The position numbers were made by a program, and so were the translations under genes. From the IMG/VR virus record IMGVR_UViG_3300037418_002157: DNA of 62,382 nucleotides; one strand, given 5' to 3'. Below, in pieces: positions 6,512 through 45,422 of this stretch (position 1 is its first letter; the number at the start of each line of letters is the position of its first letter). Below the pieces are notes generated by a model. That model ran no database searches, had not been told where the DNA came from, and saw nothing but the letters and a program-made list of their open reading frames with translations. This DNA comes from a virus.

Positions 6512-6618
6512 TAGGTCCCCCTAGCTCACCGCGGGCGCCCCCCACTGTGGTGTCCGGATATGACACCACACTTCCGAGTGGTATCGGGAGGGATTGAACG
6601 CAATCAGTGTGCAGCTAG

Positions 6619-13245: not shown

Positions 13246-13448
13246 CCGAGCAGCCGACCGTCATCACCGGTATCCGTCCCGGTCTCGACATCCGCGGACT
13301 CGACCGCAATCAGATCCCCGTCGCCGACTGGCTGTGCTCCTGCGGCCACCACGAGCGTGCCCGCGGCGACGACGCCGCCCGCGAACTCTGCGCCCGCGTC
13401 CGCGTCGGCCACTGCCCCCACACCATCACGGCCAAGGAGGCGGCGTGA
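13242..13448 (+). CDS. Hypothetical protein (68 aa), Cys/His-rich
   Basis: ORF track. Coupled start. Confidence 0.55.
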   Translation: MTEQPTVITGIRPGLDIRGLDRNQIPVADWLCSCGHHERARGDDAARELCARVRVGHCPHTITAKEAA

Positions 13449-14236
13449 CGTTCACCCAGCCCGCCGGAACCATCACCGAGCACGAGACGAGCGCCGGCTC
13501 CGCCATCGCCCAAATGATCCGCACCCTCATTGTCGACACCGCCAACAATGCCCCCCGCTCAAGGCAGCGCCGCATCGGACCGTCCGAGGTCGGCAACCCC
13601 TGCACGCGTGCCCTCGCCTACAAAGTCCTCGACTGGCCGGAGGTGCCCGGCGCGGACCGGGACCCGTGGGCCAGCATCCAGGGCACCGCCGTCCACGCCT
13701 GGATGGCCGAACTGTTCGAGAAGCGCGACCCCAACGGTGAGCGCTACCTCGTCGAGAAGCGGGTCACCGTCCGCAAGGGCTACACCTACGACTCCACCGT
13801 CGCCGGATCCGCCGACCTGTACGACAAGGCCAGCGGCACCGTCTACGACTGGAAGATCACCGGCGTGTCGTCGCTGCAGAAATACCGACGCCACGGGCCC
13901 GGCGACCAGTACCGCATCCAGGCCAACCTGTACGGGCTCGGCATGGAAAACGCGGGCGAGAAGCCCCAAAGGGTCGCCATCGTCTTCCTCCCCCGGCATC
14001 ACGTCCTCGAGCCCTACGTGTGGGTCGACGACTACCGGCGCGACGTCGCCGAGCAGGCCCTCGCCCGCCTCGACGCGATCCGTGAACTCGTCCTCAAGCT
14101 CGACCCGGAAAAAACCCCGCAGCACTTCGGGCTGTTCCCCACCGACCCCAAAGCCCGCTGCGTGTTCTGCCCCTGGCACAAGCCCGGCGCCACCGACCTC
14201 AGCCAGGGCTGCCCCGGGATCACCAAGTCCTCCTGA
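13445..14236 (+). CDS. Cas4/RecB-like PD-(D/E)xK exonuclease with Cys cluster
   Basis: N-terminal Cys (GNPCTRAL). GSADLYD...YDWKITG (D...D.K). QANLY (QxxxY). C-terminal CVFCPW...C. ORF 13334..14236 trimmed to the GTG at 13445. Confidence 0.7.
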   Translation: MTFTQPAGTITEHETSAGSAIAQMIRTLIVDTANNAPRSRQRRIGPSEVGNPCTRALAYKVLDWPEVPGADRDPWASIQGTAVHAWMAELFEKRDPNGERYLVEKRVTVRKGYTYDSTVAGSADLYDKASGTVYDWKITGVSSLQKYRRHGPGDQYRIQANLYGLGMENAGEKPQRVAIVFLPRHHVLEPYVWVDDYRRDVAEQALARLDAIRELVLKLDPEKTPQHFGLFPTDPKARCVFCPWHKPGATDLSQGCPGITKSS

Positions 14237-15012: not shown

Positions 15013-17517
15013 GTGAGCCCCGACTACACCACCCTCGAGGCAGCCCTCGCCTGGCACCACGCTGGCGCCAGCGTCGTCCGGGCTGCCATCGACGGCACCA
15101 AGCGGCCGGACGGGGCATGGAAGCAGTACCAGACGAAGCGCCCCACCGAAGACATCGTCCGCCAGTGGTTCACCGGCGGGCACCCCGGCCTCGGCATCAT
15201 CCTCGGCTCCGTCTCCGGCGGCCTCGAGATGCTCGAGTTCGAAGGCCGCGCCGTCACCGAGAAGCGCCACGAGGAGTTCGACGAGATCGCTGAGGCGTCC
15301 GGGCTGAGCAACGTGTGGCAGCGCATCAAGGACGGCTACTGCGAGCAGACACCGTCCGGCGGCTACCACCTCGTCTACCGCGTCACCGACGGGCCCGTCC
15401 TGCCCAACACGAAGCTCGCCCGCCGCCCAGCCACCGCCGAGGAACTCGCCGCCAAGCCCAGCGAGAAAATCAAAGTCCTCGTTGAAACACGCGGCGAAGG
15501 CGGCTTCGTCATCACCGCCCCCTCCCACGGACCCGTCCACGAGACCGGTCAACCCTGGCAGTTGCTCGCCGGAGACACCAAGAACCTGGCCGAGATCACC
15601 GCGGACGAACGGGACGCCCTGTTCACCATCGCCCGCATGCTCGACCAAATGCCCGCCACCGAGCAGCCCACCCCGACCACCCCCGAACAGCCGACCAGCA
15701 CTGCAGACTTCGGCGGCGTCAAGCCCGGCGAGGACTACGAGCAGCGCACCGACTGGGCTGACATCCTCACCCCCCACGGCTGGCGGCTGCTCGGCCAGCA
15801 CGGCAACACCCGATACTGGCAGCGGCCCGGAAAGACAGGCATCGGCCCCTCCGCCACCACCGGCCACGCCGACGACCGCGACCGCCTCTACGTCTTCACC
15901 ACCAGCACAGAGTTCGACGCCGAGCGCCCCTACACCAAGTTCGGCGCCTACGCCCTCCTCGAACACGGCGGCGACCATTCCGCCGCCGCCAAAGAACTCC
16001 GCCGCCGCGGCTACGGCAGCGCCCCCACCACCCCCACGGGCCGACCGCAGCTGCGCATCGTCAACGGCTTCACCCAGCCGATCACCGGCGCCCCGCCCGT
16101 CGACGGCGCCAACGCTCTCCAGACGGACACCGCGCCGCGCGCCGCGGCCTCGAGCGGCAGCTGGCCCGAGTCGTTCACCGACGACGGCAACGCCCTGCTC
16201 TTCGTCGACACCTACGGCAACCAGCTGAGGTACGTCCCGCAGCGCAGCATGTGGCTGCTGTGGGAAGGCCACCGCTGGGCGTGGGACGAAGGCGGCCTCG
16301 TCGTCGAACTCGCCCGCGACATGATCCGCGACCTCGACCCCACCGTCTTCGGCGATGAAGACCTCGAGAAAGCCGCCCGCAAGCACAAGGCCTCCAGCCT
16401 GTCCCGCGACAAAGTCAACGCGGCTATTCATCTGTCCCGTACCGATCGTCGCGTCGTCGCTCCGGCCTCCGAGCTCGACGCCATCGCCACTCACCTCAAC
16501 ACCCCGGGCGGCATCGTCGATCTCGTCACCGGAGAAATGCACCCCTCCGACCCGGGCGCCCTGCACACCCGCTCCACTGCGGTCGAGCCCGACTTCGAGG
16601 CCGACGCACCACGCTGGCAGACCTTCCTCGCCGACACGTTCGGCGAGGACACCGAACTCGCCGCGTTCGTGCAGCGGCTGGCCGGCTACTCCGCCAGCGG
16701 CGACACACGCTTTCACGTCCTGCCGTTCCTGCACGGCCCCGGGGGGAACGGCAAAACCGTCTTCCTCGACGTACTGCGCATCCTGCTCGGCGACTACGCA
16801 GCAACCGCCCCCAACACCTTCCTCATGGTCGGCCAGCAGCAACACGAAACCGAAGTCGCCCGCCTCGCAGGCCTGCGCCTCGTCGTCGTCTCCGAGGTCA
16901 ACCAGGACGCCCGCTTCGACGAAGCCAAGATGAAGCTCCTCACTGGCGGCGACGCCCTCACCGCCCGGTTCATGCGCCAGGACCACTTCACGTTCGAACC
17001 CACCCACCACTTGTGGCTGATGGGCAACCACCTGCCTGCCGTGAAAGCAGGCGGTGACTCCTTCTGGCGGCGCCTGCGCCTCGTCCCCTTCACCCGCACC
17101 GTCTCCGAAGAGAAGAAGATCGACGGGCTCGCCCGCATCCTCGCCAACGAAGAAGGCCCGGCGATCCTCGCCTGGATGATTCGCGGCGCCGTCGACGCGT
17201 TCGCCGCCAAACTTCGCGAGCCGGCCGCCGTCATGGCCTTCACCGAGTCCTACGCCGAGGAAGAGGACGCCCTCGCGCGATTCATGGAGGACTGCTGCCA
17301 CCTCGGCGGAGGCACGCACGTCACCACGCTCACGGCAAAGCTGCGCGGCGCCTATGAGGACTGGTGCAAGACCGAGGGCGAGATTCCTCTCAAGCCTCAG
17401 GTGCTCGGCCGCGAACTTCGGACTCGTTTCGGTATTGACCAGAAGCGCAGCAATGGTCGGCGTATGTACGTCGGTGTCGCTCTTGTCGCCAGCGACGTCG
17501 ACGACGAGGGGGAGTGA
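15013..17517 (+). CDS. Bifunctional primase-polymerase (prim-pol) plus D5/P4-type SF3 helicase replicase
   Basis: N-terminal prim-pol pattern (KRPDGAWKQYQ, GLGIILG, ETRGEGGFVITAPS). C-terminal P-loop GPGGNGKTVFLDVL and Walker B LVVVSEV. GTG at 15013 with an AAGGAGA RBS. Confidence 0.88.
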   Translation: MSPDYTTLEAALAWHHAGASVVRAAIDGTKRPDGAWKQYQTKRPTEDIVRQWFTGGHPGLGIILGSVSGGLEMLEFEGRAVTEKRHEEFDEIAEASGLSNVWQRIKDGYCEQTPSGGYHLVYRVTDGPVLPNTKLARRPATAEELAAKPSEKIKVLVETRGEGGFVITAPSHGPVHETGQPWQLLAGDTKNLAEITADERDALFTIARMLDQMPATEQPTPTTPEQPTSTADFGGVKPGEDYEQRTDWADILTPHGWRLLGQHGNTRYWQRPGKTGIGPSATTGHADDRDRLYVFTTSTEFDAERPYTKFGAYALLEHGGDHSAAAKELRRRGYGSAPTTPTGRPQLRIVNGFTQPITGAPPVDGANALQTDTAPRAAASSGSWPESFTDDGNALLFVDTYGNQLRYVPQRSMWLLWEGHRWAWDEGGLVVELARDMIRDLDPTVFGDEDLEKAARKHKASSLSRDKVNAAIHLSRTDRRVVAPASELDAIATHLNTPGGIVDLVTGEMHPSDPGALHTRSTAVEPDFEADAPRWQTFLADTFGEDTELAAFVQRLAGYSASGDTRFHVLPFLHGPGGNGKTVFLDVLRILLGDYAATAPNTFLMVGQQQHETEVARLAGLRLVVVSEVNQDARFDEAKMKLLTGGDALTARFMRQDHFTFEPTHHLWLMGNHLPAVKAGGDSFWRRLRLVPFTRTVSEEKKIDGLARILANEEGPAILAWMIRGAVDAFAAKLREPAAVMAFTESYAEEEDALARFMEDCCHLGGGTHVTTLTAKLRGAYEDWCKTEGEIPLKPQVLGRELRTRFGIDQKRSNGRRMYVGVALVASDVDDEGE

Positions 17518-19752: not shown

Positions 19753-19986
19753 GTGACCGACGCACCCGACACCGTGACCGAGCACGTCCGCGCCGATCAA
19801 CTCACCCCAGGCCGCACGATCTTCGTCCTCACGTCGACGTGGGCGGAAACAGTGCAGCGCGTGGACCCGGCACACGGCTACGTCAACGTCTACACCGATC
19901 AGACCGGCCCGGAGGCTTGCTACCAGTGGCAGGCGCATGAGCCGATCCGGTCCCTCACGCAGCCCGGCGACACCCCTGCCCCGTGA
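19753..19986 (+). CDS. Hypothetical protein (77 aa)
   Basis: GTG at 19753 preceded by GAGAGGAA. High GC3. Confidence 0.55.
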   Translation: MTDAPDTVTEHVRADQLTPGRTIFVLTSTWAETVQRVDPAHGYVNVYTDQTGPEACYQWQAHEPIRSLTQPGDTPAP

Positions 19987-20062
19987 CCACGGACACGGCC
20001 GCCCGGAGTCGAGTTCCGGGCGGCCGCACCACCCAGCATCTCACCAGCACCCGGAGGAAACC

Positions 20063-20866
20063 GTGACCGACCCGTACTGGGAAGACCGAGAGGCAGGCCT
20101 CGCCCTGTACCTCGGCGATATGCGGGAGATACTTCCCGCCCTCGGCGTCCAAGCCGATCTGATCATCGCGGATCCACCGTATGGCGAGACCGCGCTCGCC
20201 TGGGACCGCTGGCCCATCGGCTGGCTGAAGGTCGCCGCCGCCCACAGTAACGCCATGTGGTGCTTCGGCAGCCAACGCATGTTCTTCGACCACCTCGACG
20301 AGTTCAAGGCCGCCGACTGGAAGCTCAGCCAGGACGTCATCGGCCACGACGAAGACGGCGATCCGATCGTCGGCGACGTCAACATCGTGTGGGAGAAGCA
20401 CAACGGCACCGGCTTCGCCAAGGATCGCTTCCGGCGCGTCCACGAACACGTCCTGCACTGGTATCGCGGCCCGTGGAGCGGCATACATCAGGCAGTCCCC
20501 CGAGTCCCGGCAATCTACGACCCGAAAGGTCGCGTCCGCAGTCGCCAGGACCGCGCGGCACATCTCGGGGCCCTAGGCGACGCGGTGTACGTCGATGACG
20601 GACTTCGACTGATGCGGTCGGTGATCAAAGTCGGGTCGGTGCGGGGCGGCATCCACAAGACGCAGAAGCCGGAGTCACTGCTGCTGCCGCTGATCCGCTA
20701 CGCCTGCCCACCCGGCGGTCTCATCGTGGATCCGTTCGCCGGGTCCGGCAGCACGCTCGATGCGGCCCGCCAGTCCGGCCGCCGGGCGATCGGCATCGAA
20801 GCCCACGAGCCCTACGCCGAAGCCGCAGCGCGCCGCCTGTCAGCGCTGACCCTGCCGGTGGCGTGA
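20063..20866 (+). CDS. DNA N6-adenine/N4-cytosine methyltransferase (DPPY type)
   Basis: IIADPPYG catalytic motif, HKTQKP, and VDPFAGSGST AdoMet motif (beta-class order). GTG at 20063 with a GGAGGAAA RBS. Confidence 0.88.
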   Translation: MTDPYWEDREAGLALYLGDMREILPALGVQADLIIADPPYGETALAWDRWPIGWLKVAAAHSNAMWCFGSQRMFFDHLDEFKAADWKLSQDVIGHDEDGDPIVGDVNIVWEKHNGTGFAKDRFRRVHEHVLHWYRGPWSGIHQAVPRVPAIYDPKGRVRSRQDRAAHLGALGDAVYVDDGLRLMRSVIKVGSVRGGIHKTQKPESLLLPLIRYACPPGGLIVDPFAGSGSTLDAARQSGRRAIGIEAHEPYAEAAARRLSALTLPVA

Positions 20867-25405: not shown

Positions 25406-25813
25406 TTAGTGGGGGAGCGCCTCGTCGAGGTACTCCTGAACCGGACCGAACAGGCCGTAGGGCACCAGCCCCGGGATCTCGGAGTGCTCGACCCAGGCGA
25501 CCGTGTCGAGCTCGTCATCGTCAGCGACGTGCGCCGTGCCCGAAACGACCTCGCATGCCGTGTACGCCATGAACTTCCCGGTCTTCGGGTGAACCCGGTC
25601 GCCGATGTACTTCACGGACTTCACGATGAGGCCCGTCTCCTCGAGCGTCTCCCGCACCGCCGCATCCTCCGCCGTCTCGCCGTCCTCGACTCCGCCGGCA
25701 GGGAACTGCCACGACAGCTCGCCCTCCTTGACGCGGCGGCGCACCATGAGGACACGTCCCCCATCCGTGATGATCGCGGCGCTTACGTCGGGCTTCTTCG
25801 TCTCGGTGGTCAT
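25406..25813 (-). CDS. NUDIX hydrolase (135 aa) with a complete Nudix box
   Basis: GGVEDGETAEDAAVRETLEETGL matches Gx5Ex7REUxEExGU exactly. The ATG at 25813 overlaps the upstream stop. Confidence 0.9.
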   Translation of the reverse strand: MTTETKKPDVSAAIITDGGRVLMVRRRVKEGELSWQFPAGGVEDGETAEDAAVRETLEETGLIVKSVKYIGDRVHPKTGKFMAYTACEVVSGTAHVADDDELDTVAWVEHSEIPGLVPYGLFGPVQEYLDEALPH

Positions 25814-29069: not shown

Positions 29070-30413
29070 ATGACCGCCAGCCCGCCCCTGAACGGCCACA
29101 CCCGGTCGCCCATCCGCATTGTCGGGGACTGGCAGCCGGTCACCCCCGAACCCGCCGAGGAACAGCGCAGCCCCCAGCCCGAACCCGCCGTCGACGCCGA
29201 GGTCGCCCGCGCTCGCGCGTGGGCCGAGGCCGAGGAACGCCGCGTCGCCGCCGAAGCCGAGAAGGAAGAGCGCCTCCTCAAGGCGCAGGCCGAAGCCGAC
29301 GCCATCCGCGTCAAGGCAGAGGAAGATGCCCGCCGGCTGCGCCTCGCCAACGACCGGCAGGAACGCAAGGCGCGTGAGGAGGAGGAAGCATCCGAGGCGC
29401 GCATCGCCGAGTCCCGCCGCAAGCGCGACGAAGCCGACCGCGCCCGCGAGCGGGACGCGCGCCAGGCCGCCGAGCAGCAGCAGAGCGAGCAGCAGGCCGC
29501 GAAGGAGATCACCGACGCGGATGAGAAGTGGCGGTCCTACGCGATCCGCTTCGCGATCGTCTGCGGCATCGTCTCCCTCCCGGTGCAGATGTCGTTCTTC
29601 TGGAATCCGCACGCCCCGTGGATGGCTGCCGCACCGGTCATGCTCGAAGGCGCCGCCTGGGTCGTTCACCGAGGTGCCCGCGCGGCGGCGGTCAGCAAGC
29701 GGCCGGTGTGGCACTACCGGGCGATCGTGTGGCTGCTCGCCCTGATCGCCGCCGCGATCAACCTGTACCACGGCCTTCACGCCTTCGACCCGGGGACCGC
29801 GCTGGCGACCGCGTTCGCGTCGGTCGCCGGCCCCGGTGTGTGGGATCTCCACGAGCACGGCCGGATCCGCAAGCGGGACGGCGTCCTGACCCGGCGGGAG
29901 CGCAAGGCGCAGCGGAAGCAGGAGCGCGCCGAGGCGGCTCGGAAGGCCGCGGAGGAGAAGCGGATCGCAGCCGAGAAGGAGGCCGCGGACAAGGCGGCGG
30001 CCGAGGCAGCGGAGAAGCTCGCCGCGGCGCGCGCGGAGAAGTTCCCGAAGGTGTGGGAGCACGCCCTGAAGATCGCTGCGGCGCTCGGCGAGACGACCGT
30101 GACCGAGGCTGTCTGGGACCGTGCGCACCGCGACGTCGAGGGTGCTCCGCCCGCCGATTCTGCGGACGTCATCCGCATGCGCAACGCCGCCGAAGCGAGG
30201 GTCGCCGCTGCCACCGAGAAGCGGTCCGTAAACGGCATGTTGATGCAGGTCGATCAACAAATGCCCCGTCGTTCGCGGCGCGGTCACGTAGGGGGTCCGA
30301 CGGTGCGCGGAGTGCGACGCCCGAACGACACCGAGCGGTACACACCAGGCGCCCGTCGACAGGCAGCCATCACCGCCAAGAACACAGCAGAGAAGAAGGG
30401 TGGCAAGGGCTGA
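29070..30413 (+). CDS. DUF2637/SpdB2-like polytopic membrane protein with coiled-coil arms (447 aa)
   Basis: Central block of about 4 TM helices (YAIRFAIVCGIVSLPVQMSFFW, WMAAAPVMLEGAAWVV, YRAIVWLLALIAAAINLY, ALATAFASVAGPGVW), flanked by long E/R/A/K-rich helical regions. Confidence 0.6.
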   Translation: MTASPPLNGHTRSPIRIVGDWQPVTPEPAEEQRSPQPEPAVDAEVARARAWAEAEERRVAAEAEKEERLLKAQAEADAIRVKAEEDARRLRLANDRQERKAREEEEASEARIAESRRKRDEADRARERDARQAAEQQQSEQQAAKEITDADEKWRSYAIRFAIVCGIVSLPVQMSFFWNPHAPWMAAAPVMLEGAAWVVHRGARAAAVSKRPVWHYRAIVWLLALIAAAINLYHGLHAFDPGTALATAFASVAGPGVWDLHEHGRIRKRDGVLTRRERKAQRKQERAEAARKAAEEKRIAAEKEAADKAAAEAAEKLAAARAEKFPKVWEHALKIAAALGETTVTEAVWDRAHRDVEGAPPADSADVIRMRNAAEARVAAATEKRSVNGMLMQVDQQMPRRSRRGHVGGPTVRGVRRPNDTERYTPGARRQAAITAKNTAEKKGGKG

Positions 30414-30922
30414 TGACTGGCATCACCTACGTCATGACGCACCGCGGCTACCGGTCGGTGAAGGTCGGTTACACGAGCCCTGATTCGCTCCGGCTGAGCG
30501 GCCTGCGGCGCGGGGGATGGGAGCCCTTCCGTCAGCTCGCCTGCGAGTCCACTTCGCTGGCGCGCGAGATCGAACAGGCGGCCCTCTTCGAGATCCGATT
30601 CCGGCTGTACGTGCCCGTGCATCTGACGCCTACGCAGATGCGTGGCGTCCACGGCTGGAGTGAGACGTCGAGCATTGCCGTGATCAGCCCCAGCGAGGTG
30701 TGGGAGATCGTCTGCGAGAAGGGCGCCCTGGAGCAGCTCGCGCCAACCGTCAAGAAGACCCGCGTCTACAAACCGCCAGTGAAGCGCGGTGTACGTCGAT
30801 CTGGCGACGTCCCCGACTTCGTGCGCGCTGCCCGCATCGAAGCGTCACGCACCGCCCGCGCCAACCGGGTCGGTGGACCCCAGAAGTCCAAGGCCAAGAA
30901 CGCCCGCCAGAAGGACCAGTGA
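30413..30922 (+). CDS. T5orf172/GIY-YIG-like domain protein with a basic tail (169 aa)
   Basis: YVMTHRGYRSVKVGYTS...EIEQAALFEIRFRL...HGWSET pattern, then a K/R-rich C-terminus. Coupled at both ends. Confidence 0.45.
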   Translation: MTGITYVMTHRGYRSVKVGYTSPDSLRLSGLRRGGWEPFRQLACESTSLAREIEQAALFEIRFRLYVPVHLTPTQMRGVHGWSETSSIAVISPSEVWEIVCEKGALEQLAPTVKKTRVYKPPVKRGVRRSGDVPDFVRAARIEASRTARANRVGGPQKSKAKNARQKDQ

Positions 30923-32925
30923 TGAGCCTCGACGCCCACCCCGAGTTCCCCGCCGACTGGGACGACAGCAAGGTGATCCACGGCGAGCTGCACGTGCCCG
31001 ACGACCTGTCCGACGAGGACATCCCGCCCGGCATAGTGGTCCCCTACACGCCGCGCCCGCCCGTCCTCAGCAAGGCGGGCGGGGCGGCCATGGTCGTCGT
31101 CGCGAAGACCGGCCGCTTCACCGGCCTGTCCGTGCGCTACTTCGGCGTCGGCCTCAAGGCCGTCTGCCACCTCGGCTGGCGGTACGTGCGCGCCCACGAC
31201 CTTCAGGAGGTCATCGGCGGCATGCAGAAGAAAGGCGACTGGAACAAGGTCGACGACGTCCGCAAGAAGCGGTGGAAGTTCCTCGGCTGGACGGCCGGCA
31301 TCACCGCCGGCCTCAACCTGGCCGGCTGGTGGGCGCTGGTGAAGTTCGCCGACATGACGGCTGCGGGCTGGTCCTGGAAGATCCCGCCCACCACCACCGC
31401 AGCGATCGCCGCCACCCTGATCGCCCTGTACGGCCGCTACCGGACCAACCGGCCCGAAATCGGCCCCCTGCAGATGATCGCCGAGCAGGACAACCCGAAC
31501 TCGGACGAGCCGTTCCCGCTCGCCGTGTGCACCTCCCCCGGCATGGTCGAGGACTGCGTATCCCGCGCCCTCGCCTGGGAGGGCATCGAAGCCCGCGCGA
31601 TCCGGGTGCTCGGTTTCCACGGCACGTTCTGGGAGATCGACGTCATCCTCAAGGGCTCCACCCCCGGCAAGGTCAACGCGGTCGCCGACCAACTCGACGC
31701 CCACTTCAACATCAAGCAGGGCGGCACTCTCATCGACCCCGACCCGCAGCAGTCTGCGCACGTCGTGCTGCGCCTGGTCGTCGGCAACCCCTTCGAGGGC
31801 ATGCCGAAGCCTGCCGTGCACGCCCCCAACAGTCTCGACATCGCCGACAGCCACAACTTCGGCCGCTGCATGGACGGCAGCTCCCTCGATATGGTCCTCG
31901 AAGGGCAGCGCATCCTCGTCATCGGCGTATCCGGCTCCGCCAAGTCCACCGGCGTCCTACGCGACCTCGCCGAGGTCATCACCGCCTGCCACAACGCCAT
32001 CGCCCTCGACATGGACCCCGTCAAGGACGGCCTGCGCGAGTTCGAAGGCGCCATGGCCGCCCCGCCGATCCGCGGAGCCAAGGCCTGCGAGCAGTGGCTC
32101 GAGTACCTGGTGAAGATGGCCAGCGGACGCAACGCCGTCCGCAACCGGCTCGGCATGGGCGACACCTGGGTCGCCACCAAGGAACGCCCCGCGATCTTCG
32201 CGCTCGTCGACGAGTTCATCTTCCTCAGCCAGAAGGCCAAGGAGAAGTTCATCGAACTCCTACGCATCGGCAAGCAGTCCGGGATCTACGTGGTCGCCGC
32301 CGGCCAGGACGCCACCTCCGATGCCATGGGTGACGCCATCGCCGACACGTTCACCACCAGCATCATGCTCGCCTCCCGCTGGGACGACATCCGCCTGGTC
32401 CTCGGCCAGGGCGCAGCGGCCAAGGGCTACCGGCCCGACCGGCTCGTGCCCGCCCAGAACAAGCAGATCAAGAACGATGCGGGCCAGTCCTACATCAAGG
32501 GCCCCGGCCTGGACCGGCCCCTGCTGTACGGCTGGAACGAGCACAGCAACGAGGCCATCAAGCGCGCCGTCGCCGACCGCATCAAGGCCGGGCGGCCCAC
32601 GTTTGACCGCGACACCCTCGCCGCGGCCGGGCTGCTCCATCTTGCCGACGCAGGAGCGGAGCAGAAGCGCATCAGCGGGGACCGGCAGATCGTCTTCGAC
32701 GCGATCGAGGTCATGACCGAAGCCGGCGTCGAACGGATCCGCCCCGAGCCGCTCGCCGAGGCGCTCACCGAGCTGAAGCCGGAGCTGTACGGCGACCTGA
32801 CGGTTGCCGAACTGCGGAAGCTGCTGCGGGAGATCGGCGTCGGCGCCCCTGTGCCGATCGGCGACATCGACGGGCTGACGAACCCGCGTGGCTACAAGCT
32901 CGAACAGCTGACCACTTTGACCTAG
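30922..32925 (+). CDS. traB: FtsK/SpoIIIE-family DNA translocase, Streptomyces TraB-like (667 aa)
   Basis: N-terminal TM segments. Walker A-like ILVIGVSGSAKSTGVL. Walker B AIFALVDEF. Followed by YVVAAGQDATSD and a helical wHTH-like C-terminus. ATG at 30922 overlaps the upstream TGA. Confidence 0.78.
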   Translation: MSLDAHPEFPADWDDSKVIHGELHVPDDLSDEDIPPGIVVPYTPRPPVLSKAGGAAMVVVAKTGRFTGLSVRYFGVGLKAVCHLGWRYVRAHDLQEVIGGMQKKGDWNKVDDVRKKRWKFLGWTAGITAGLNLAGWWALVKFADMTAAGWSWKIPPTTTAAIAATLIALYGRYRTNRPEIGPLQMIAEQDNPNSDEPFPLAVCTSPGMVEDCVSRALAWEGIEARAIRVLGFHGTFWEIDVILKGSTPGKVNAVADQLDAHFNIKQGGTLIDPDPQQSAHVVLRLVVGNPFEGMPKPAVHAPNSLDIADSHNFGRCMDGSSLDMVLEGQRILVIGVSGSAKSTGVLRDLAEVITACHNAIALDMDPVKDGLREFEGAMAAPPIRGAKACEQWLEYLVKMASGRNAVRNRLGMGDTWVATKERPAIFALVDEFIFLSQKAKEKFIELLRIGKQSGIYVVAAGQDATSDAMGDAIADTFTTSIMLASRWDDIRLVLGQGAAAKGYRPDRLVPAQNKQIKNDAGQSYIKGPGLDRPLLYGWNEHSNEAIKRAVADRIKAGRPTFDRDTLAAAGLLHLADAGAEQKRISGDRQIVFDAIEVMTEAGVERIRPEPLAEALTELKPELYGDLTVAELRKLLREIGVGAPVPIGDIDGLTNPRGYKLEQLTTLT

Positions 32926-32932
32926 AAAGTCC

Positions 32933-33088
32933 ACTGCTCGCGAGGTGCTCGCCACTGCTCGACCGCAGGTCACAGCCGCTCGACCAGGTGCTCGCTCAAC
33001 TGCTCGGCGAAATCCCGAGCACCTGCCGAGCAGCACCCCGAGCGGCTCTGACCAGCAGCGGAGCAGTAGCGAGCGCCCGCCGAGCACC
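32933..33088. repeat. clt-like array: 8-mers (A/G)(C/G)(T/C)GCTCG forward, then CGAGC(A/G)NN reverse
   Basis: Forward: ACTGCTCG at 32933, GGTGCTCG at 32944, ACTGCTCG at 32954, GCCGCTCG at 32975, GGTGCTCG at 32987, ACTGCTCG at 32999. Reverse: CGAGCACC at 33016, CGAGCAGC at 33027, CGAGCGGC at 33039, GGAGCAGT at 33060, CGAGCGCC at 33070, CGAGCACC at 33081. The array starts 8 nt after the traB-like stop. Confidence 0.6.
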
Positions 33089-33133
33089 ACACAAACCCAC
33101 GCAAACCGATCACCCGCCCGAGGAGTCCCGAAC

Positions 33134-33928
33134 ATGCCTGCGAAGCGTCAGCCGGCCCGCCGCACCACCCGCACCGCGCCCGCGCGACGCCGGAAACCGG
33201 CAGCCCGCACCTCCGCGCGCAAGCACCCCGCCCGCCGCGTCAAAATCCCCCGCACCGGGCCGATCCACGCCAGGATCACCGCCCGCATGGTCCTCTTCGC
33301 CGTCTCCAAGTTCGACACCCACGACGACGTCGTCCGCTCCCGCAAAGACGCCGCAATCCTCCGCGCCACCCACCAGGGCTGCCCCAAATGCAAGGGCAAC
33401 GGGCAGATCTTCACCAAGGGCAAGAACGGCGAGTTCACCGGCTCCAAGCCCTGCCCCGCCCCCGCCACCAAGCAGCGCGTCAGCCGGTGGGAGATCTACA
33501 AAGCGTCCCGGTTCGGCCCCGACAAGAACACCGGCCTCGTCGGATGGGCCTGCCCCTGCGGCAAGAAGGAGAAGCCCCGCTACCGGGACGCCAAAGAAGC
33601 CACGAAAGCGCTGCGCACCCACGAACGGAACAAGCACGGCGGGAAGAGCGTCGGCGGCGCCTGGTACGCGCAGACCACCGCGGCCGCCGCCGAGCAGCCG
33701 CAGCAGCAGGCGGCCGTGCCGTCGAAGACCGTCACTGACTCCGGCATGACCGACGAACAGTGGATCAAGCAGAACAAGAAGATCCACCCCGGCAAAGCCA
33801 TTGCGCAGGGCGTGTGCTGGATGTGCGGCGGAAACGGCAAGCTGCACGGAGCCTTCGGCGGCGAACAGATCCTCGCCGTCTGCCCCGAGTGCCAGGGAAG
33901 CGGCAAGCCAGCGAAAGCGACGGCCTGA
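33134..33928 (+). CDS. Basic protein with DnaJ-type CxxCxGxG zinc-finger repeats (264 aa)
   Basis: Arg-rich N-terminus. CPKCKGNGQ, CWMCGGNGK and CPECQGSGK. ATG at 33134 after GAGGAG. Confidence 0.6.
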   Translation: MPAKRQPARRTTRTAPARRRKPAARTSARKHPARRVKIPRTGPIHARITARMVLFAVSKFDTHDDVVRSRKDAAILRATHQGCPKCKGNGQIFTKGKNGEFTGSKPCPAPATKQRVSRWEIYKASRFGPDKNTGLVGWACPCGKKEKPRYRDAKEATKALRTHERNKHGGKSVGGAWYAQTTAAAAEQPQQQAAVPSKTVTDSGMTDEQWIKQNKKIHPGKAIAQGVCWMCGGNGKLHGAFGGEQILAVCPECQGSGKPAKATA

Positions 33929-39181: not shown

Positions 39182-39769
39182 ATGGCCGTGCCTGGCCGCA
39201 AGCCAAAGCCCCCGCTGCAGGTCGTCCGTGAGGGCAACCCGGGGAAGCGCCCGGTTCGTGAGGGCGTGAAGCTTCCGCCGGCCGAACTGGTCGAGCCGGA
39301 CTGGTCGTCGTTCTTCCCCTCCTCACGTATGCCTCCAAAGCCTCGGGCTCCGCGGGGTGCAGACGACGAGGAACTGAAGGAGTACCGGCGCGAGGTCGCG
39401 CACTGGCAGCGGCTGAAGCTTGCGCAGGAGGCCGCCCAGTTCGGGCGTGAGGTCGCCGGCCGGGAGTGGCAGCGGGTCGTTCCGGTGCTGCAGCAGATGG
39501 CCGGGCTGACTTCGGTGGACCGGTCGACGGCCGTGGACTACTGCGTGTGCGTGGCCCGGCTGGAGTGGTGTGAGCGGCAGCTGTCCATCGAGGGTCTGGT
39601 GACGATGGGGCAGCGGGGCCCGTGCCGGAATCCGTTGACGACGATCGCGTCGCAGTACCGGACGCAGTTGAAGGCGTACATCGGGGAGCTTGGCCTGTCG
39701 CCGTCTGCTCGCGGTCGGCTGACGCCGCCGGAGGGTGGCGACGATGACGACGACGACACCTTCGACTGA
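39182..39769 (+). CDS. Terminase small subunit (P27-like)
   Basis: REGNPGKRP N-terminal motif and an acidic C-terminal tail DDDDDDTFD. Immediately upstream of TerL. Confidence 0.8.
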   Translation: MAVPGRKPKPPLQVVREGNPGKRPVREGVKLPPAELVEPDWSSFFPSSRMPPKPRAPRGADDEELKEYRREVAHWQRLKLAQEAAQFGREVAGREWQRVVPVLQQMAGLTSVDRSTAVDYCVCVARLEWCERQLSIEGLVTMGQRGPCRNPLTTIASQYRTQLKAYIGELGLSPSARGRLTPPEGGDDDDDDTFD

Positions 39770-41453
39770 TGGGCTGCCGGTTCCGCGTGAGGCGCTGTAC
39801 GAGCTGGGGCTGAGCGATGAGGAGATCGAACAGGCTTTGGCGTCCCGGCCGTTGGTGGTCGCGAACCAGGCGCACGAGCAGGAGGGTGCCTGGTTCGACG
39901 TCGAGGCGGCACGGCGGGCGGTCCGGGCGATCCAGTCGTTCAAGCACACGAAGGGCCGGTGGGGTGCGACGCCGCTGAAGCTGGCGCCGTGGCAGTTGGT
40001 GTGGGTGATCGCGCCGGTGTTCGGCTGGCTGTGGCACGATCCGGAGCTCGGCCGGCCGGTGCGGGTGGTGCGGGCCTGCTGGATCGAGGTGCCCCGCAAG
40101 AACGGCAAGTCGACATTGTCGTCGGGTATAGGCCTGACGCTGCTCCTGGCGGACCGGGAGATCGGCGCCGAGGTGTATGCGGCGGCGGGATCGCTAGAGC
40201 AAGCGAAGCGCGTGTTCGACGATGCGAAGCGGATGGCGCAGACGTCGAAGGCGGTGAAGGGCCGGGCCGAGGTGTTGACTTCGGTGATCCGGGTGCCGCG
40301 CACGGGCGGTGTCTTCCGCGCGCTGTCGCGGATCGCGGAGACCGCGCATGGCCTGAACGTCTCGGGCGCGGTGATCGACGAGGTCCACGTGCACAAGTCG
40401 AGGGATCTGATCGATGCGATCGAGACGGGCACGGGTGCACGTGATCAGCCGCTGATTGTGTTCATCACGACGGCGGACGACGCTCAAGAGGGCTCGATCT
40501 ACGACGAGAAGCACTCCTACACCCGCAAGGTCGCCGAGCACGTTGTCCAGGATCCCGCACACTACGGGGTGATCTGGGCGGCCGACGAGTCCGACGATCC
40601 GTTCGACGAGACGACGTGGCGGCACGCGAACCCCGGGTTGGGAACCTCGCCGACGCTGGCGTATCTGCGGCGTGAGGCGAACAAGGCGCAGGCGACACCG
40701 TCTTACTTCCCGACGTTCCTGCGGCTGTCGCTGAACATCCGCGAGAAGGCTTCTACGCGGTGGATCGACGTCCGGTCGTGGGATCGCGTGGCGGGCATGG
40801 TCGATGAGTCGTCGCTGAAGGGCCGTCGGGCGTGGGGCGGGCTCGACTTGTCGGCGGTGTCCGACCTGAGCGCCTGGGTGCTGGCGGTGGAGTCGAAGCA
40901 GCCGGGTGTGGAGCTGGAGTTGGTGTCCCGGTTCTGGCTGCCGTCGGAGCGGCTGGAGGAACTGCAGCGGCATCTGCAGGTGCCGTTGGCGCAGTGGGCG
41001 CGTGAGGGCTTCCTGAAGCTGACCGAGGGCGATGCGATCGACTACGACACGATCGAGAAGCAGGTGCTGGAGGACTGCAAGCATTTCGACGTGCAGTGGA
41101 TCGGCTACGACCGCATGTTCGCCGGCCAGCTGGTGCAGAACGTGGACCGGGAGACGAAGCGCGGCGTGAAGGTGTCGCCGATCTCGCAGACGTTCCTCGG
41201 TCTGTCACCGGCGTGCAAGGAGTTGGACCGGCTGCTGCTGGAGCAGCGTTTCCGGCATGGCGGGCATCCGATTCTGCGATGGATGGCCGGGTGTGTGGAG
41301 ACCATCGCGGATGGCAACGACAACTACCGGCCGACGAAGCCGGACCGGAAGAAGTCGCAGGCCCGGATTGATGGTGTCGCAGCGACGGTGATGGGCCTGG
41401 ACGGATATCTGCGCAGGCCGAAGGCGAAATCCCGGATAGCGGTCGGATTCTGA
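39735..41453 (+). CDS. Terminase large subunit
   Basis: 572 aa. Walker A-like VPRKNGKS, Walker B VIDEVH, and a C-terminal RNaseH-like nuclease region (GLDLS...DG). Confidence 0.93.
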   Translation: MATMTTTTPSTDGLPVPREALYELGLSDEEIEQALASRPLVVANQAHEQEGAWFDVEAARRAVRAIQSFKHTKGRWGATPLKLAPWQLVWVIAPVFGWLWHDPELGRPVRVVRACWIEVPRKNGKSTLSSGIGLTLLLADREIGAEVYAAAGSLEQAKRVFDDAKRMAQTSKAVKGRAEVLTSVIRVPRTGGVFRALSRIAETAHGLNVSGAVIDEVHVHKSRDLIDAIETGTGARDQPLIVFITTADDAQEGSIYDEKHSYTRKVAEHVVQDPAHYGVIWAADESDDPFDETTWRHANPGLGTSPTLAYLRREANKAQATPSYFPTFLRLSLNIREKASTRWIDVRSWDRVAGMVDESSLKGRRAWGGLDLSAVSDLSAWVLAVESKQPGVELELVSRFWLPSERLEELQRHLQVPLAQWAREGFLKLTEGDAIDYDTIEKQVLEDCKHFDVQWIGYDRMFAGQLVQNVDRETKRGVKVSPISQTFLGLSPACKELDRLLLEQRFRHGGHPILRWMAGCVETIADGNDNYRPTKPDRKKSQARIDGVAATVMGLDGYLRRPKAKSRIAVGF

Positions 41454-41462
41454 CGCGAGGGG

Positions 41463-42890
41463 GTGCTCATGGCCCTCGCGCAGAAGCCGAAGCCGGGTGA
41501 GCCGCTGTGGTGGCTGGACAGGCTGTGGGACGAGCTGGAGGAGCGGCGGAAGTACGCGGAGACGGTCCGCTGCTACTACAGCGGCGATCATCCTCTGGCG
41601 AACATCGCAGACAAGGCCCGCGATGCCTTCCGCAGGCTACTGAAGCAGGCCCGCTCGAACTATGTCGGCCTGGTCGTCGACGCCACCGCGGAACGCATCC
41701 AGGTGGATGGGGTGCGGATCGGGGACGAGAAGGTCGGCGACACTGAGGCGTGGCGGATCTGGCAGGCCAACAACCTCGACGCCGACTCGGATCTGCTCAT
41801 CACAGAGGCGGTGAAGGTGGGGCGGGCGTTCGTGCTTGTCGCACCGAACCCGGGCGACGCCAAGACGCCGATCGTGACGGCGGAGGACTGCACGCAGGCC
41901 ATCGTCGCCTACAAGCCTGGTTCCCGGCGGGAGCGTGCTGCGGGGCTGAAGGTGTGGGAGGACGACTGGACGGGCGACCTGATGGCGACCGTCTACCTCC
42001 CGGACGCCCTGTACAAGTACGAGGCGCCGAAGCCGACGCAGGGCACGACGGGCAAGCCGCGCTGGGTGGCCCGCGAGGTCGAGGGTGAGGCGTGGCCGGC
42101 ACCGAATCCGCTGGGTGTCGTGCCGCTGGTGGAGATGCAGAACCGCCCGGATCTGCTGGGCGGCTGCATGTCGGAGATCGAGGATGTCCTCGACATCCAG
42201 GACCGGATCAACAAGACGCTGATCGACCGGATGATGGCGCAGGAGTTCGCCGCGTTCCGTCAGCGGTGGATGACTGGCTACGAGGTGCCGACGGACGAGT
42301 CCGGGCAGCCGGTCGAGCCGTTCAAGGCGGCCGTGGACCGGTTGTGGGTGATCGAGGACGAGAACGTCAAGGTCGGCGAGTTCGGCGCCACCGACCTCGG
42401 CCCGTACTTGAGCGCGGTCGAGGCGGATGTGAAGGACATGGCGGCCCGCACGCGCACCCCGTCGCAGTACCTGCTCGGCGCGATGGTCAACATCTCCGGT
42501 GACGCGCTGAAGGCCGCCGAGTCCGGCCTCGTCAGCAAGGTCAGGCAGCGGCAACGCCCGTTCGGTGAGGCGATCGAGGAGGTCGTCCGCCTGTACCTGC
42601 AGGCTGCGGGCGATGGACGGGACCTGTCGGCGCTCGAGGTGATCTGGCACAACCCGGAGTTCCGCACCGAGGGCGAACTCGTGGACGCGCTGGTGAAGAT
42701 GTCCACGCTCGGGGTGCCGCGGGAGGCGCTGTGGGAGCGGTGGGGTGCCTCTCAGACGGAGATTGCGCAGTGGCGTGAGCAGGCCGACCAGCAGGCAGCC
42801 AGGATCCTCGGCGGCGACCCGGCGAGCCTGTTCGGTCCGAAGGCTGATGCGTCCGTGACGGAACCGGCGGCCGATGGCAACGCCGACTGA
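41463..42890 (+). CDS. Portal protein
   Basis: 475 aa directly after TerL. SPP1-gp6-like pattern (YYSGDHPL..., LVDATAERI). Confidence 0.88.
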   Translation: MLMALAQKPKPGEPLWWLDRLWDELEERRKYAETVRCYYSGDHPLANIADKARDAFRRLLKQARSNYVGLVVDATAERIQVDGVRIGDEKVGDTEAWRIWQANNLDADSDLLITEAVKVGRAFVLVAPNPGDAKTPIVTAEDCTQAIVAYKPGSRRERAAGLKVWEDDWTGDLMATVYLPDALYKYEAPKPTQGTTGKPRWVAREVEGEAWPAPNPLGVVPLVEMQNRPDLLGGCMSEIEDVLDIQDRINKTLIDRMMAQEFAAFRQRWMTGYEVPTDESGQPVEPFKAAVDRLWVIEDENVKVGEFGATDLGPYLSAVEADVKDMAARTRTPSQYLLGAMVNISGDALKAAESGLVSKVRQRQRPFGEAIEEVVRLYLQAAGDGRDLSALEVIWHNPEFRTEGELVDALVKMSTLGVPREALWERWGASQTEIAQWREQADQQAARILGGDPASLFGPKADASVTEPAADGNAD

Positions 42891-44471: not shown

Positions 44472-45422
44472 GTGGCCTACAACAACGTGACCTCGCGGAC
44501 GGACGCTTCGGCGCTCATCCCGGAAGAGGTCTCCAACGAGATGCTCGGCAAGGCGACTGAGCAGTCCGCCGCGCTGAGCCTGTTCCGGCGGGTGCCGGTG
44601 GGCCGCGCTCAGGTCCGGTTCCCGGTCCTGTCTGCGCTGCCGGTGGCCTACTTCGTCGGCGGTGACACTGGTCTGAAGCAGACGACCGAGGTCGCGTGGG
44701 CGAACAAGTTCCTCAACATCGAGGAGATCGCCACGATCATGCCGGTCCCGGACAACGTCCTGGCCGACGTGGACGCCAACATCTGGGACGAGGCGATGCC
44801 TCTCCTGACCGAGGCGTTCGGCCGCACCCTCGACGCGGCGATCTTCTTCGGGACGAACGCCCCGTCCTCGTGGCCGTCCGACGTCACCACCGCGGCGACC
44901 GCAGCGGGCAACGACGTCACCGAGAGCGCAACGGCAGCGCAGGGTGGGTTCTTCGGCGACCTGGACAACCTGTACGAGAAGGTCGAGGCCGACGGTTACG
45001 AGATCGACGGCTGGGTCGCGTCGACGTCGGCGAAGTCGAAGCTGCGCAAGGCGCGCGACACCCAGGGCCGCAAGCTCGACGAGACCCGCGTCAGCGGCAA
45101 CCTGATGACGCTGGACGGGCTGCCGGTCGCCTACGCGATGCGCGGCCTGTTCCCGTCCGGCGGCGGCGCCGGCACGAACACCCGCCTGTTCGGCGGTGAC
45201 TGGTCGCAGTTCGTTCTCGGTGTCCGCCAGGACATCACGATGAAGATCCTCGATCAGGCCGTCATTCAGGACAACACCGGCGCGATCATGTTCAACCTCG
45301 CACAGCAGGACATGACGGCGGTGCGCCTGACGTTCCGTGTGGGCTGGCAGGTCTCGAACCCGATCAACAACGAGCAGCCGACCGAGGCGTCCCGCTACCC
45401 GGCCGGCGTCCTGAAGTACTGA
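44472..45422 (+). CDS. Major capsid protein (HK97 fold)
   Basis: 316 aa. LIPEEVSNEMLGKATEQSAALSLFRRVPV... pattern and position after the scaffold. GTG with a GGAGGAGGG RBS. Confidence 0.88.
   Translation: MAYNNVTSRTDASALIPEEVSNEMLGKATEQSAALSLFRRVPVGRAQVRFPVLSALPVAYFVGGDTGLKQTTEVAWANKFLNIEEIATIMPVPDNVLADVDANIWDEAMPLLTEAFGRTLDAAIFFGTNAPSSWPSDVTTAATAAGNDVTESATAAQGGFFGDLDNLYEKVEADGYEIDGWVASTSAKSKLRKARDTQGRKLDETRVSGNLMTLDGLPVAYAMRGLFPSGGGAGTNTRLFGGDWSQFVLGVRQDITMKILDQAVIQDNTGAIMFNLAQQDMTAVRLTFRVGWQVSNPINNEQPTEASRYPAGVLKY

Follow-up and report, generated by a model that had tools for sequence, protein, structure and literature searches.

In Streptomyces plasmids, the translocase TraB uses a C-terminal winged helix to bind the 8-bp clt repeats that lie at the 3' end of the traB gene or shortly beyond it (PMC4447253, PMC4170104, PMC3583192). 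The clt of pWTY27 is 175 bp long, with 16 bp within traA and 159 bp downstream (PMC3583192). Non-coding repeats of 7-9 bp in direct and inverted orientation make up the clt loci of pSVH1 (TRS repeats), pWTY27, pJV1 and pIJ101 (PMC3583192, PMC4447253, PMC9513070). The array described here is likewise non-coding and composed of short direct and inverted repeats; it is similar in size to the plasmid loci and shares their placement relative to an FtsK-like translocase gene, at its 3' end or directly beyond. Recognition is ascribed to a C-terminal winged helix for the phage array as for the plasmid loci (there of TraB/TraA), and the specificity varies by element. However, the carrier here is a temperate phage, neither a conjugative plasmid nor an AICE, and the motif RSYGCTCG is new. 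The phage array also differs from plasmid clt in its strict mirror-symmetric 6+5(+1) layout, its phasing of ~11 bp and its embedded CCGCAGGTCA pair. For pSVH1, specificity is reported to map to helix alpha-3, whereas the specificity-linked residues of the phage protein lie on the beta-1 strand and the wing.

The proposed pump-site pair also resembles FtsK gamma with KOPS and SpoIIIE with SRS, where a hexameric dsDNA pump reads an 8-bp motif through a C-terminal winged helix and the orientation of the motif matters for loading. KOPS and SRS occur dispersed over an entire chromosome with a strand bias, whereas the phage motif is concentrated in one 156-bp array. In contrast to FtsK gamma, the phage C-terminal domain shows no FtsK_gamma match in Pfam or Foldseek searches, and in the plasmid relative L002 a true FtsK_gamma lies at the N-terminus. 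The element pZL12/phiZL12 and its relative pSLE1 are Streptomyces phage-plasmids, with a tra locus for conjugal transfer according to citing papers (PMC3583192, PMC4487206). pZL12 is a ~90-kb element with ParAB that is maintained as a plasmid, whereas the present phage is 62 kb and carries an integrase; the citing papers describe no clt-like array in pZL12. Homologous motors (~36% identity over residues 188-565, same PHROG family) are found in lytic BE-cluster phages (Coruscant, NootNoot, Paradiddles and others), in which FtsK-like translocases are usually read as host-development manipulators (PMC10117723, PMC13587820). These phages served as a negative control. They have the motor with a canonical Walker A, without the winged helix and without the array, and the next gene overlaps the translocase stop so that there is no intergenic array. 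A literature search found no description of a phage clt.

The stretch of DNA analysed (62,382 nucleotides, hereafter the window) is the complete circular 62.3-kb genome of a temperate siphophage of Streptomyces. It encodes TerS, TerL, portal, capsid and tape-measure proteins as well as AICE-like functions (integrase, NUDIX, primase-polymerase), and its relatives reside in chromosomes. DNA comparison with a plasmid collection gave a sole similarity, a 219-bp stretch shared with two S. europaeiscabiei plasmids (79% identity). The plasmid replicon assumed in the initial annotation was rejected because of this near absence of plasmid DNA similarity and the presence of phage structural genes on a circular contig. 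The genes relevant to this work are as follows.

29070-30413, + strand: upstream membrane protein gene (447 aa, weakly DUF2637-like)
30413-30922, + strand: small ORF (169 aa), translationally coupled to the translocase gene
30922-32925, + strand: FtsK/SpoIIIE/TraB-like translocase gene (667 aa; phrog_12531, E 9e-67)
32686-32922, + strand: coding region of the predicted C-terminal winged helix (residues 589-667)
33134-33928, + strand: downstream gene (basic Arg/Lys-rich N-terminus and CXXCXGXG zinc-finger motifs)
25406-25813, - strand: NUDIX hydrolase gene (Pfam PF00293, E 5e-25)
15013-17517: primase/helicase gene, 15 kb from the array
39182-39769: TerS gene
39735-41453: TerL gene

The translocase gene ends in the stop codon TAG (32923-32925), and the first repeat unit begins 8 nt later. 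The parts of the array are given below.

32933-33088: whole repeat array (156 bp, non-coding), six forward RSYGCTCG units followed by five reverse units and one variant
32933-33006, + strand: forward arm, six 8-bp units RSYGCTCG, with orthologous units in 22/22 distinct related arrays
32933-32940, 32954-32961 and 32999-33006, + strand: forward unit ACTGCTCG
32944-32951 and 32987-32994, + strand: forward unit GGTGCTCG
32975-32982, + strand: forward unit GCCGCTCG
32963-32972, + strand: conserved element CCGCAGGTCA, inside the 21-bp gap that separates unit 3 from unit 4
33016-33088, - strand: reverse arm, five CGAGCRSY units plus the variant unit
33016-33023 and 33081-33088, - strand: reverse unit CGAGCACC
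33027-33034, - strand: reverse unit CGAGCAGC
33039-33046, - strand: reverse unit CGAGCGGC
33049-33061, + strand: imperfect inverse partner of CCGCAGGTCA, in the 21-bp gap of the reverse arm (TGACCAGCAGCGG here, TGACCTGC in most relatives)
33060-33067, - strand: variant (twelfth) unit GGAGCAGT, with GGAGC in place of CGAGC
33070-33077, - strand: reverse unit CGAGCGCC

All twelve 8-mers listed in the initial annotation were confirmed, including their start 8 nt past the translocase stop. Eleven of them are true units; the twelfth, which had been counted as one more repeat, is a conserved variant with its own sequence. Nearly all relatives have ..GCTCC at this unit, which ignores the G/A and GC/CC switches of the other eleven. 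The unit-to-unit distances (11, 10, 21, 12, 12 / 14 / 11, 12, 21, 10, 11) are mirror-symmetric, and the spacing is about one helical turn (about 11 bp). Over R-S-Y-G-C-T-C-G the information content is 1.0, 1.0, 1.3, 2, 2, 2, 2 and 1.5 bits; an 8-bp unit length is justified because the information falls to ~0 beyond these positions. The array region contains a 60-nt inverted repeat with 75% complementarity. The make-up of short and inverted repeats proposed earlier holds, with eleven units, one variant and eight informative positions. In the CCGCAGGTCA element, nine of ten bases are invariant in 22/22 aligned arrays and the tenth is kept in 21/22. The element is not enriched elsewhere in the window.

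The local clustering of the motif greatly exceeds chance: the array holds 11 GCTCG/CGAGC pentamers in 160 bp, compared with six in the second-richest 160-bp stretch of the 62-kb window. YGCTCG sites number 11 per 156 bp; in 300 third-order Markov simulations the mean was 4.0 and the highest value 6. The initial annotation had proposed enrichment across the replicon as a check. In this analysis GCTCG was found 351 times in the whole window (358 expected) and YGCTCG 195 times outside the array (177 +/- 13 expected), and strand skew outside the array was absent (forward/reverse 58/61 on the left and 42/34 on the right). The motif signal is purely local since there is no window-wide enrichment. 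Replicon-wide enrichment is thus a non-diagnostic test: the array is clearly selected despite its absence. A KOPS/SRS-like reading of the motif was rejected, as the motif is neither over-represented nor polar across the replicon.

The scan of genome contigs alone gave eight related loci, and others were added from IMG/VR and by exact-protein look-ups. In total the relatives comprise 33 further phage or prophage loci (8 from genomes, 18 from IMG/VR viral contigs and 7 from exact-protein look-ups), with translocase identity from 84% down to 60%. In these 33 loci the array is found in the same place, 7-13 nt past the translocase stop, with the same 6+5(+1) architecture and spacing. The unit sequence switches in concert. 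Within one element, 11/11 units have a common core and last base in 18 of the 22 distinct arrays, and between elements the motif changes among GCTCG, GCTCA, CCTCG, GCTA and GTCT. The inter-unit spacers vary freely and are neither conserved nor complementary. One array (L036) is degenerate. The array is also kept, in place and architecture, in the three conjugative-type plasmids examined (L001-L003), which lack phage genes and carry, in order, a translocase gene, an inverted GCTCTAC/GTAGAGC array and a basic zinc-finger gene. The CCGCAGGTCA element is found in all three as well, and plasmid translocases are 33% identical to the phage protein.

The translocase begins with helices of weak hydrophobicity, followed by a motor and a predicted winged helix at the C-terminus. 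Its Walker B motif (LVDEF) is intact and its Walker A (GVSGSAKST) is atypical: in the pattern GxxGxAK[ST], Ala replaces the canonical Gly before Lys, and this is invariant in 53 homologues. Because of this Walker A, ATPase or pump activity of the family is not assured. The motor domain shows ~75% identity across the family. A profile match to FtsK structures in PDB (E 0.02) aligned the P-loop and Walker B, and the match to Pfam PF01580 (FtsK_SpoIIIE) was weak (E 0.14); at E <= 0.01 the Pfam search returned nothing for the translocase or the neighbouring genes. The TraB identity given in the initial annotation did not hold. The protein scored 25.1 bits (E 5.8e-6) against the curated TraB model NF041214 (NCBIfam), which has a cutoff of 800, and it differs from TraB in its P-loop as well. 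Judged by sequence, it appears to be a phage FtsK/SpoIIIE-like protein (family phrog_12531) and only distant kin of plasmid TraB. The full-length AlphaFold2 model was poor (pLDDT 54) and usable in the C-terminal domain only. The domain model had a pLDDT of 76.7 overall and about 80-87 over residues 590-667, with H-beta-H-H-wing topology. The top Foldseek matches were the winged-helix domains of Rex, Fur and ORC (probability 0.99; best E 0.1, non-significant). The domain is predicted to be a winged helix, and residues 589-667 are proposed as the reader of the repeats.

Comparison of 10 GCTCG loci with 8 GCTCA loci identified six class-separating columns among 667, all in the C-terminal domain (residues 604, 606, 645, 646, 648 and 653). 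Identity over residues 1-585 is 0.756 within classes and 0.746 between them; over residues 586-667 it is 0.751 within and 0.602 between. The nearest neighbours by the N-terminal part often belong to the other repeat class. The downstream zinc-finger gene, which is equally close to the array, and the upstream ORF have zero class-separating columns, and for this reason neither protein is favoured as the repeat reader. The specificity signal thus appears confined to the winged helix. When wing class was used for prediction at new loci, the wing QLG[EPA]CEGE was paired with GCTA repeats in 5/5 loci and PIGAIDG..NPNG with CCTCG repeats in 2/2. Overall, wing class predicted repeat class in 7/8 new or held-out loci. 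The exception (L031) has the wing PIGAMDG..NPNG yet carries TGCTCG in 9/11 units, which breaks a simple wing code. In the loci with GTCT repeats the C-terminal domain is a different one. The array adjoins the coding region of the winged helix, and the association could partly be linkage in a small recombination block; the downstream side of the array shows no such block.

The flanking genes also have counterparts in the conjugative-type plasmids. The membrane protein encoded at 29070-30413 is similar to L002:1095-2537 (BLASTP E 1e-11; Pfam DUF2637 E 0.069, below threshold), and its gene is syntenic with the DUF2637 protein gene of these plasmids. It is a candidate spread or pore partner. The 169-aa ORF gave no family match and no similarity to the plasmid RRQRL protein. 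The gene at 33134-33928 is syntenic with the gene 3' of the array in the plasmids, and its product is similar to L002:5801-6574 (BLASTP E 7e-6; Pfam DnaJ_CXXCXGXG E 3e-5, below threshold).

The array is real and conserved, and it evolves in concert with the winged-helix domain. We consider it probable (roughly 60%) that it is the cis-acting recognition and loading site of the phage's own FtsK/TraB-like dsDNA translocase, a functional equivalent of clt. This was the core idea of the initial annotation, and it gains strong comparative support from the placement of the array, the concerted switches, the tracking by the winged helix and the plasmid equivalents. Physical binding, stoichiometry, ATP-driven translocation and the biological role are what we infer from these patterns. 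One C-terminal winged-helix domain would read one 8-bp unit RSYGCTCG. Six units in one direction and five or six in the other, spaced by about a helical turn, would gather subunits just downstream of the gene, and a membrane-anchored hexameric pump would assemble around the double-stranded circular phage genome. The pump may then carry the genome through hyphal cross-walls or into neighbouring hyphae, probably assisted by the flanking membrane and zinc-finger proteins. The outcome would be a virion-independent, plasmid-like spread of a temperate phage.

The same pairing of protein and site could serve gene regulation. In such a case the array would be an operator for the translocase winged helix or another regulator, controlling transcription of, or read-through into, the downstream zinc-finger/DUF6197 operon or autoregulating a potentially toxic translocase, with no DNA transfer. 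The array is found between two co-oriented genes and just 5' of the ribosome-binding site of the next one; kil-kor-type control of traB is known in Streptomyces plasmids (PMC4447253). The covariation reveals the pairing alone and is silent on its purpose, and the atypical Walker A might mean a non-pumping protein. We nevertheless think an operator unlikely. No sigma-70-like promoter was found in 32500-33500, eleven phased sites over 156 bp far exceed typical operator needs, the motor is strongly conserved with an intact Walker B, and the homologous position in conjugative-type plasmids agrees with experimentally defined clt loci (PMC3583192). A long hairpin at the RNA or single-strand level (U-tract-independent terminator, attenuator, mRNA stabiliser, cruciform or single-strand origin) is quite unlikely as the explanation of the array, even though the array strand folds to a very stable structure (-101.8 kcal/mol, z = -9.9 vs shuffles) and 82.5% of cells are paired in the 22-sequence alignment, with many pairs changed on both sides. 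All two-sided pair changes fall inside units and are an automatic consequence of the concerted switches; in spacer columns, pairing fails in 9-20 of the 22 sequences. The lack of conservation and complementarity in the spacers argues against a selected hairpin or terminator; a stem also needs neither 11 identical units per element nor a tie to a protein domain, and no Rfam family match was found. An intrinsic terminator was rejected: there is no T-tract, the spacers do not pair, and the unit sequence is conserved, not just its complementarity. The array may have an additional RNA-level or cruciform role.

Episomal maintenance is improbable, slightly more so than the hairpin; in this reading the array would be a replication origin of the iteron type, or a parS-type site that acts like a centromere in segregation into hyphal compartments or spores. 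The neighbouring genes gave no match to Rep, ParA or ParB, the primase/helicase gene is far away, and the covariation implicates the translocase and not a Rep or Par protein; these points have to be set against the circular contig and the resemblance of phased short dyad repeats to iterons (in pWTY27, RepA binds an iteron made of 7-8 bp repeats over 300 bp; PMC3583192). The task of an FtsK-like pump could also be segregation instead of transfer. This would be a variant of the loading-site explanation and not a true rival. The phage has both TerS and TerL, and short repeated motifs are common in the packaging sites (pac or cos) to which the small terminase binds. The array is very improbable as such a site: terS lies 6 kb downstream of it, plasmids without terminase carry the same array, and it covaries with the translocase domain.

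Actinophage FtsK-like genes are now treated as accessory host-manipulation genes, and a cognate cis-site would make the phage genome the substrate of the pump. A broader proposal, which we make tentatively and rate somewhat below even odds, is that a widespread family of temperate Streptomyces phages carries a complete plasmid-type dsDNA conjugation or spreading module (TraB-like pump, cognate clt, membrane and zinc-finger partners) by which the genome spreads virion-free within and between mycelia, and that changes in the wing have split the pump-site pairs into five or more private specificities. With the phage genome as the substrate of the pump, the boundary between temperate phage, AICE and conjugative plasmid would blur, and a virion-free route of phage spread in multicellular bacteria would exist. 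The loci provide a series of protein-DNA pairs (GCTCG, GCTCA, CCTCG, GCTA, GTCT and GCTCTAC) in which the changes map to few residues. Such a residue-mapped series makes DNA choice by TraB/FtsK-type proteins, a long-standing question, directly testable by domain and site swaps; if the broader proposal is true, the wing would hold a natural specificity code that is readable and can be re-engineered. The clt loci of most AICEs are undescribed (PMC9513070), and the analysis supplies a sequence-based route to locating them. The NUDIX hydrolase gene of this phage belongs to a type that is a hallmark of actinomycete integrative conjugative elements (e.g., Pif of pSAM2; PMC2440964), and we infer a tie between this gene and the array.

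All twelve 8-mers described in the initial annotation were found within 32926-33100 and none differed. They lie just past an FtsK/SpoIIIE-like gene that had been called traB-like:

30922-32925, FtsK/SpoIIIE-like translocase gene, 667 aa
32923-32925, translocase stop codon
starts 32933, 32944, 32954, 32975, 32987, 32999, + strand, six forward units ending in GCTCG
32963-32972, CCGCAGGTCA element, in one 21-bp gap of the array
starts 33016, 33027, 33039, 33070, 33081, - strand, five reverse units starting with CGAGC
33049-33061, imperfect inverse of CCGCAGGTCA, TGACC[AT]GC, in the other 21-bp gap
33060-33067, degenerate twelfth unit GGAGCAGT

The unit starts are separated by 11, 10, 21, 12, 12 / 14 / 11, 12, 21, 10, 11, a mirror-symmetric spacing of about one helical turn. 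The pentamers GCTCG/CGAGC occur 11 times per 160 bp at the array (no other such stretch of the window has more than six). YGCTCG occurs 11 times per 156 bp, where 300 third-order Markov simulations gave 4.0 on average and never more than 6. Thus the cluster is not a chance event. Alignment of all units gave eight informative positions (R-S-Y-G-C-T-C-G) and zero beyond, and the 8-bp unit is therefore real. The genome-wide frequency check proposed earlier was run by counting motifs outside the array; it revealed no enrichment, as over the remainder of the window the motif is neither over-represented nor biased to one strand.

The replicon had been assumed to be a plasmid. Genes called on the basis of GC3 and then scanned with PHROG and Pfam identified it instead as a phage, by its integrase, terminase, portal and capsid genes:

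4964-6226, - strand, tyrosine integrase
6619-7176, - strand, HTH repressor-like gene
11779-13245 and 19937-20866, DNA methyltransferases
13445-14236, exonuclease
15013-17517, primase/helicase
25406-25813, - strand, NUDIX hydrolase (Pfam E 5e-25)
39182-39769, small terminase
39735-41453, large terminase
41463-42890, portal
44472-45422, major capsid protein
49555-53361, putative tape-measure protein, 1268 aa (by size and position only)

Positions 1-127 and 62256-62382 are 100% identical over 127 nt, which indicates a circular or terminally redundant genome of 62,255 bp; the contig is accordingly a complete phage or episome, not an integrated one. The large terminase DNA is 71% identical to that of Arthrobacter phages. 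The NUDIX gene is located 5 kb upstream of the translocase module. A NUDIX protein (Pif), which blocks redundant transfer, is a hallmark of actinomycete integrative conjugative elements (AICEs) (PMC2440964), and by its predicted NUDIX, integrase and primase/helicase genes the phage has an AICE-like gene set. A 25-nt direct repeat (GGGCGCCCCCCACTGTGG..., 92% identical) brackets the integrase gene at 4540-4564 and 6533-6557; the copies could be arm-type or attP-related sites, or terminators.

The translocase matches phrog_12531 (FtsK/SpoIIIE-like) with E 9e-67 and FtsK structures in PDB with E 0.02. It shows about 33% identity to Streptomyces plasmid translocases; the traB-like label itself was not borne out by the curated plasmid TraB model (25 bits, cutoff 800). 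We found 352 homologues at E < 1e-10, in Streptomyces chromosomes (presumably prophages) and in 46-93 kb contigs classed as viral by IMG/VR. Loci for comparison were taken from genomes (8), from IMG/VR (18) and by exact-protein look-up (7), and in all of them an array of the same architecture starts 7-13 nt past the translocase stop. Within any one element the eleven true units have a common core and a common last base (11/11 in 18 of the 22 distinct arrays), the inter-unit spacers vary freely among elements, and the repeat differs from element to element.

Repeat classes of the array
[CT]GCTCG: the window and 11 others
[CT]GCTCA: 8 loci
mixed G/A last base: 3 loci
[CT]CCTCG: L017, L032
[CT]GCTA: L021, L033, L034, L035, L037
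CGTCT: L028, L030

Among the aligned arrays, all 21 that belong to the G, A, mixed and CCTC classes keep ..GCTCC as the twelfth unit, which is altered only in the GCTA-class array L021; it is thus a conserved variant and not an ordinary copy. It interrupts the otherwise perfect mirror symmetry at the identical place in every element. In mixed arrays (L031 3505-3690; L011, L014 and L015) the fourth unit pair, beside CCGCAGGTCA, is often the odd one: it reads CCCTCG in L031, and GCTCA where the other units are GCTCG. The pattern suggests that motif switching begins at the fourth pair, or else that this pair is read in a different way.

AlphaFold2 modelled the C-terminal 80 residues of the translocase confidently (pLDDT about 80-87) and the remaining protein poorly. 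The model places helices at 589-601, 608-618 and 628-638, a strand at 604-606 and, at 643-659, a wing formed by a beta-hairpin. The best Foldseek matches, none significant, were winged-helix DNA-binding domains of Rex, Fur, ORC and RTP. Ten non-redundant GCTCG loci were compared with eight GCTCA loci over 667 alignment columns. Only six columns separate the classes perfectly, and all six are in strand beta-1 and the wing.

Class-separating residues of the translocase
604: E/T in GCTCG, D in GCTCA
606: I in GCTCG, M in GCTCA
645: P in GCTCG, T in GCTCA
646: I in GCTCG, L in GCTCA
648: D in GCTCG, A/Y in GCTCA
653: I/R/T in GCTCG, K/N/S in GCTCA

Residues 1-585 carry no class signal (identity 0.756 within vs 0.746 between classes; nearest neighbour from the other class in 7/18), whereas residues 586-667 do (0.751 within vs 0.602 between; nearest neighbour of the same class in 17/18). 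Simple linkage is an insufficient explanation, because zero class-separating columns were found in either the upstream ORF or the downstream gene, which starts 46 bp past the last unit (identities 0.652 and 0.632). In a prospective check, 120 homologues among the matches listed were sorted by wing, and loci were fetched for new wing types. Wing QLG[EPA]CEGE pairs with GCTA in 5/5 loci and wing PIGAIDG..NPNG with CCTCG in 2/2 loci. L031, with wing PIGAMDG..NPNG, is an exception or intermediate in this pairing: it keeps TGCTCG in 9 of 11 units and has CCCTCG at the fourth pair only. The array of L036 (wing PLGALDGME) is degenerate, and the CGTCT-unit loci have an unrelated C-terminal sequence.

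Three circular Streptomyces plasmids of 43-47 kb encode a translocase 33% identical to that of the phage, and all three carry an inverted GCTCTAC/GTAGAGC array in the equivalent place, framed by the CCGCAGGTCA pair. The gene order common to phage and plasmids is DUF2637-like membrane protein, small ORF, translocase, array and basic CXXCXGXG protein. The one plasmid that was read entire carries GntR regulators, a replication-relaxation protein and a ParA-like ATPase, and no phage genes. The CCGCAGGTCA pair hardly varies from one repeat class to another, and the window shows no enrichment of it outside the array; it has the look of a second recognition element, independent of class, for some factor. 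In plasmid NZ_CP108056 (locus L002, 2990-5578) the translocase has 863 aa with FtsK_gamma (PF09397, E 2e-18) at the N-terminus (residues 20-73), which is unusual as the gamma domain of FtsK itself sits C-terminally.

Arrays of this kind and their recognition are already known from conjugation. In Streptomyces plasmids TraB, a membrane-bound FtsK-like hexamer, reads the 8-bp repeats of the plasmid locus clt via a C-terminal winged helix. It transfers double-stranded plasmid DNA, unprocessed, to the recipient and, with Spd proteins, moves it across septal cross-walls (PMC4447253, PMC4170104, PMC3583192). The clt of pWTY27 comprises 16 bp of traA and the adjacent 159 bp (PMC3583192). The phage array resembles plasmid clt in position and unit size, as the initial annotation had proposed, and also in whole-locus size and winged-helix coupling. 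Since the array fits this picture and the module is syntenic with conjugative-type plasmids, we consider it a probable clt-like loading site for the phage's own pump (probability roughly 0.6). We infer that the winged helix binds the units physically, each unit holding a single winged helix and each hexamer engaging six units, that the translocase pumps at the expense of ATP, and that array and pump serve the following role. The array would make the circular dsDNA of the phage a substrate of its pump, and pump-driven spread within a mycelium or between mycelia would not need virions. FtsK-like genes are known in phages and are treated as host-manipulation genes (PMC10117723, PMC13587820), and pZL12 is cited as one Streptomyces plasmid-phage with a tra locus (in PMC3583192 and PMC4487206). 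Literature searches turned up no clt-like site described for a phage, and even for the archetypal AICE pSAM2 no clt is described (PMC9513070). New here are a clt-like array with a new motif in a temperate phage family, the strictly dyad 6+5(+1) layout of that array, and pump-site specificities that co-evolve and form a natural series.

The array strand can also fold into a hairpin (-101.8 kcal/mol, z = -9.9), and a hairpin terminator or attenuator is a disfavoured alternative. In the 22-sequence alignment the within-unit pairs are kept, but since forward units change in step with reverse ones, such pairs are bound to look "compensatory"; the spacer-column pairs, broken in 9-20 of the 22 sequences, speak against a hairpin role. 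With no T-tract terminator found at the array, no Rfam match for the region and no need for identical units in a stem, the symmetry is that of sites. An operator or autoregulatory array is an unlikely alternative that would be compatible with the covariation taken alone, yet it accounts less well for unit number, phasing and the plasmid parallels. Also unlikely is an origin or centromere, given that no Rep or Par gene is adjacent and that the repeats covary with the translocase. A pac or cos site is very unlikely, the small terminase gene being distant from the array and the array being present also in plasmids.

The Walker A of the putative pump is GVSGSAKST (residues 335-343, window 31924-31950), with Ala where the canonical Gly precedes Lys. 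The family motif is GxxG[SA]AK[ST], with Ala and Lys invariant in 53/53 aligned homologues, and the Ala is also found in the divergent L028 and L030, whereas the canonical form is present in a plasmid relative (GGPGSGKS) and also in Coruscant, a lytic phage (AGPGGGKS). The Ala may mean altered or lost ATPase activity. In cultured lytic Streptomyces phages with genomes near 130 kb, Coruscant (MT711976, 73077-74921) and 88 more, homology is limited to the motor domain (residues 188-565, 36% identity). These phages, BE-cluster members such as Coruscant included, lack both the winged helix at the C-terminus and the array after the gene, whose stop codon is overlapped by the gene that follows; winged helix and array thus come and go together.
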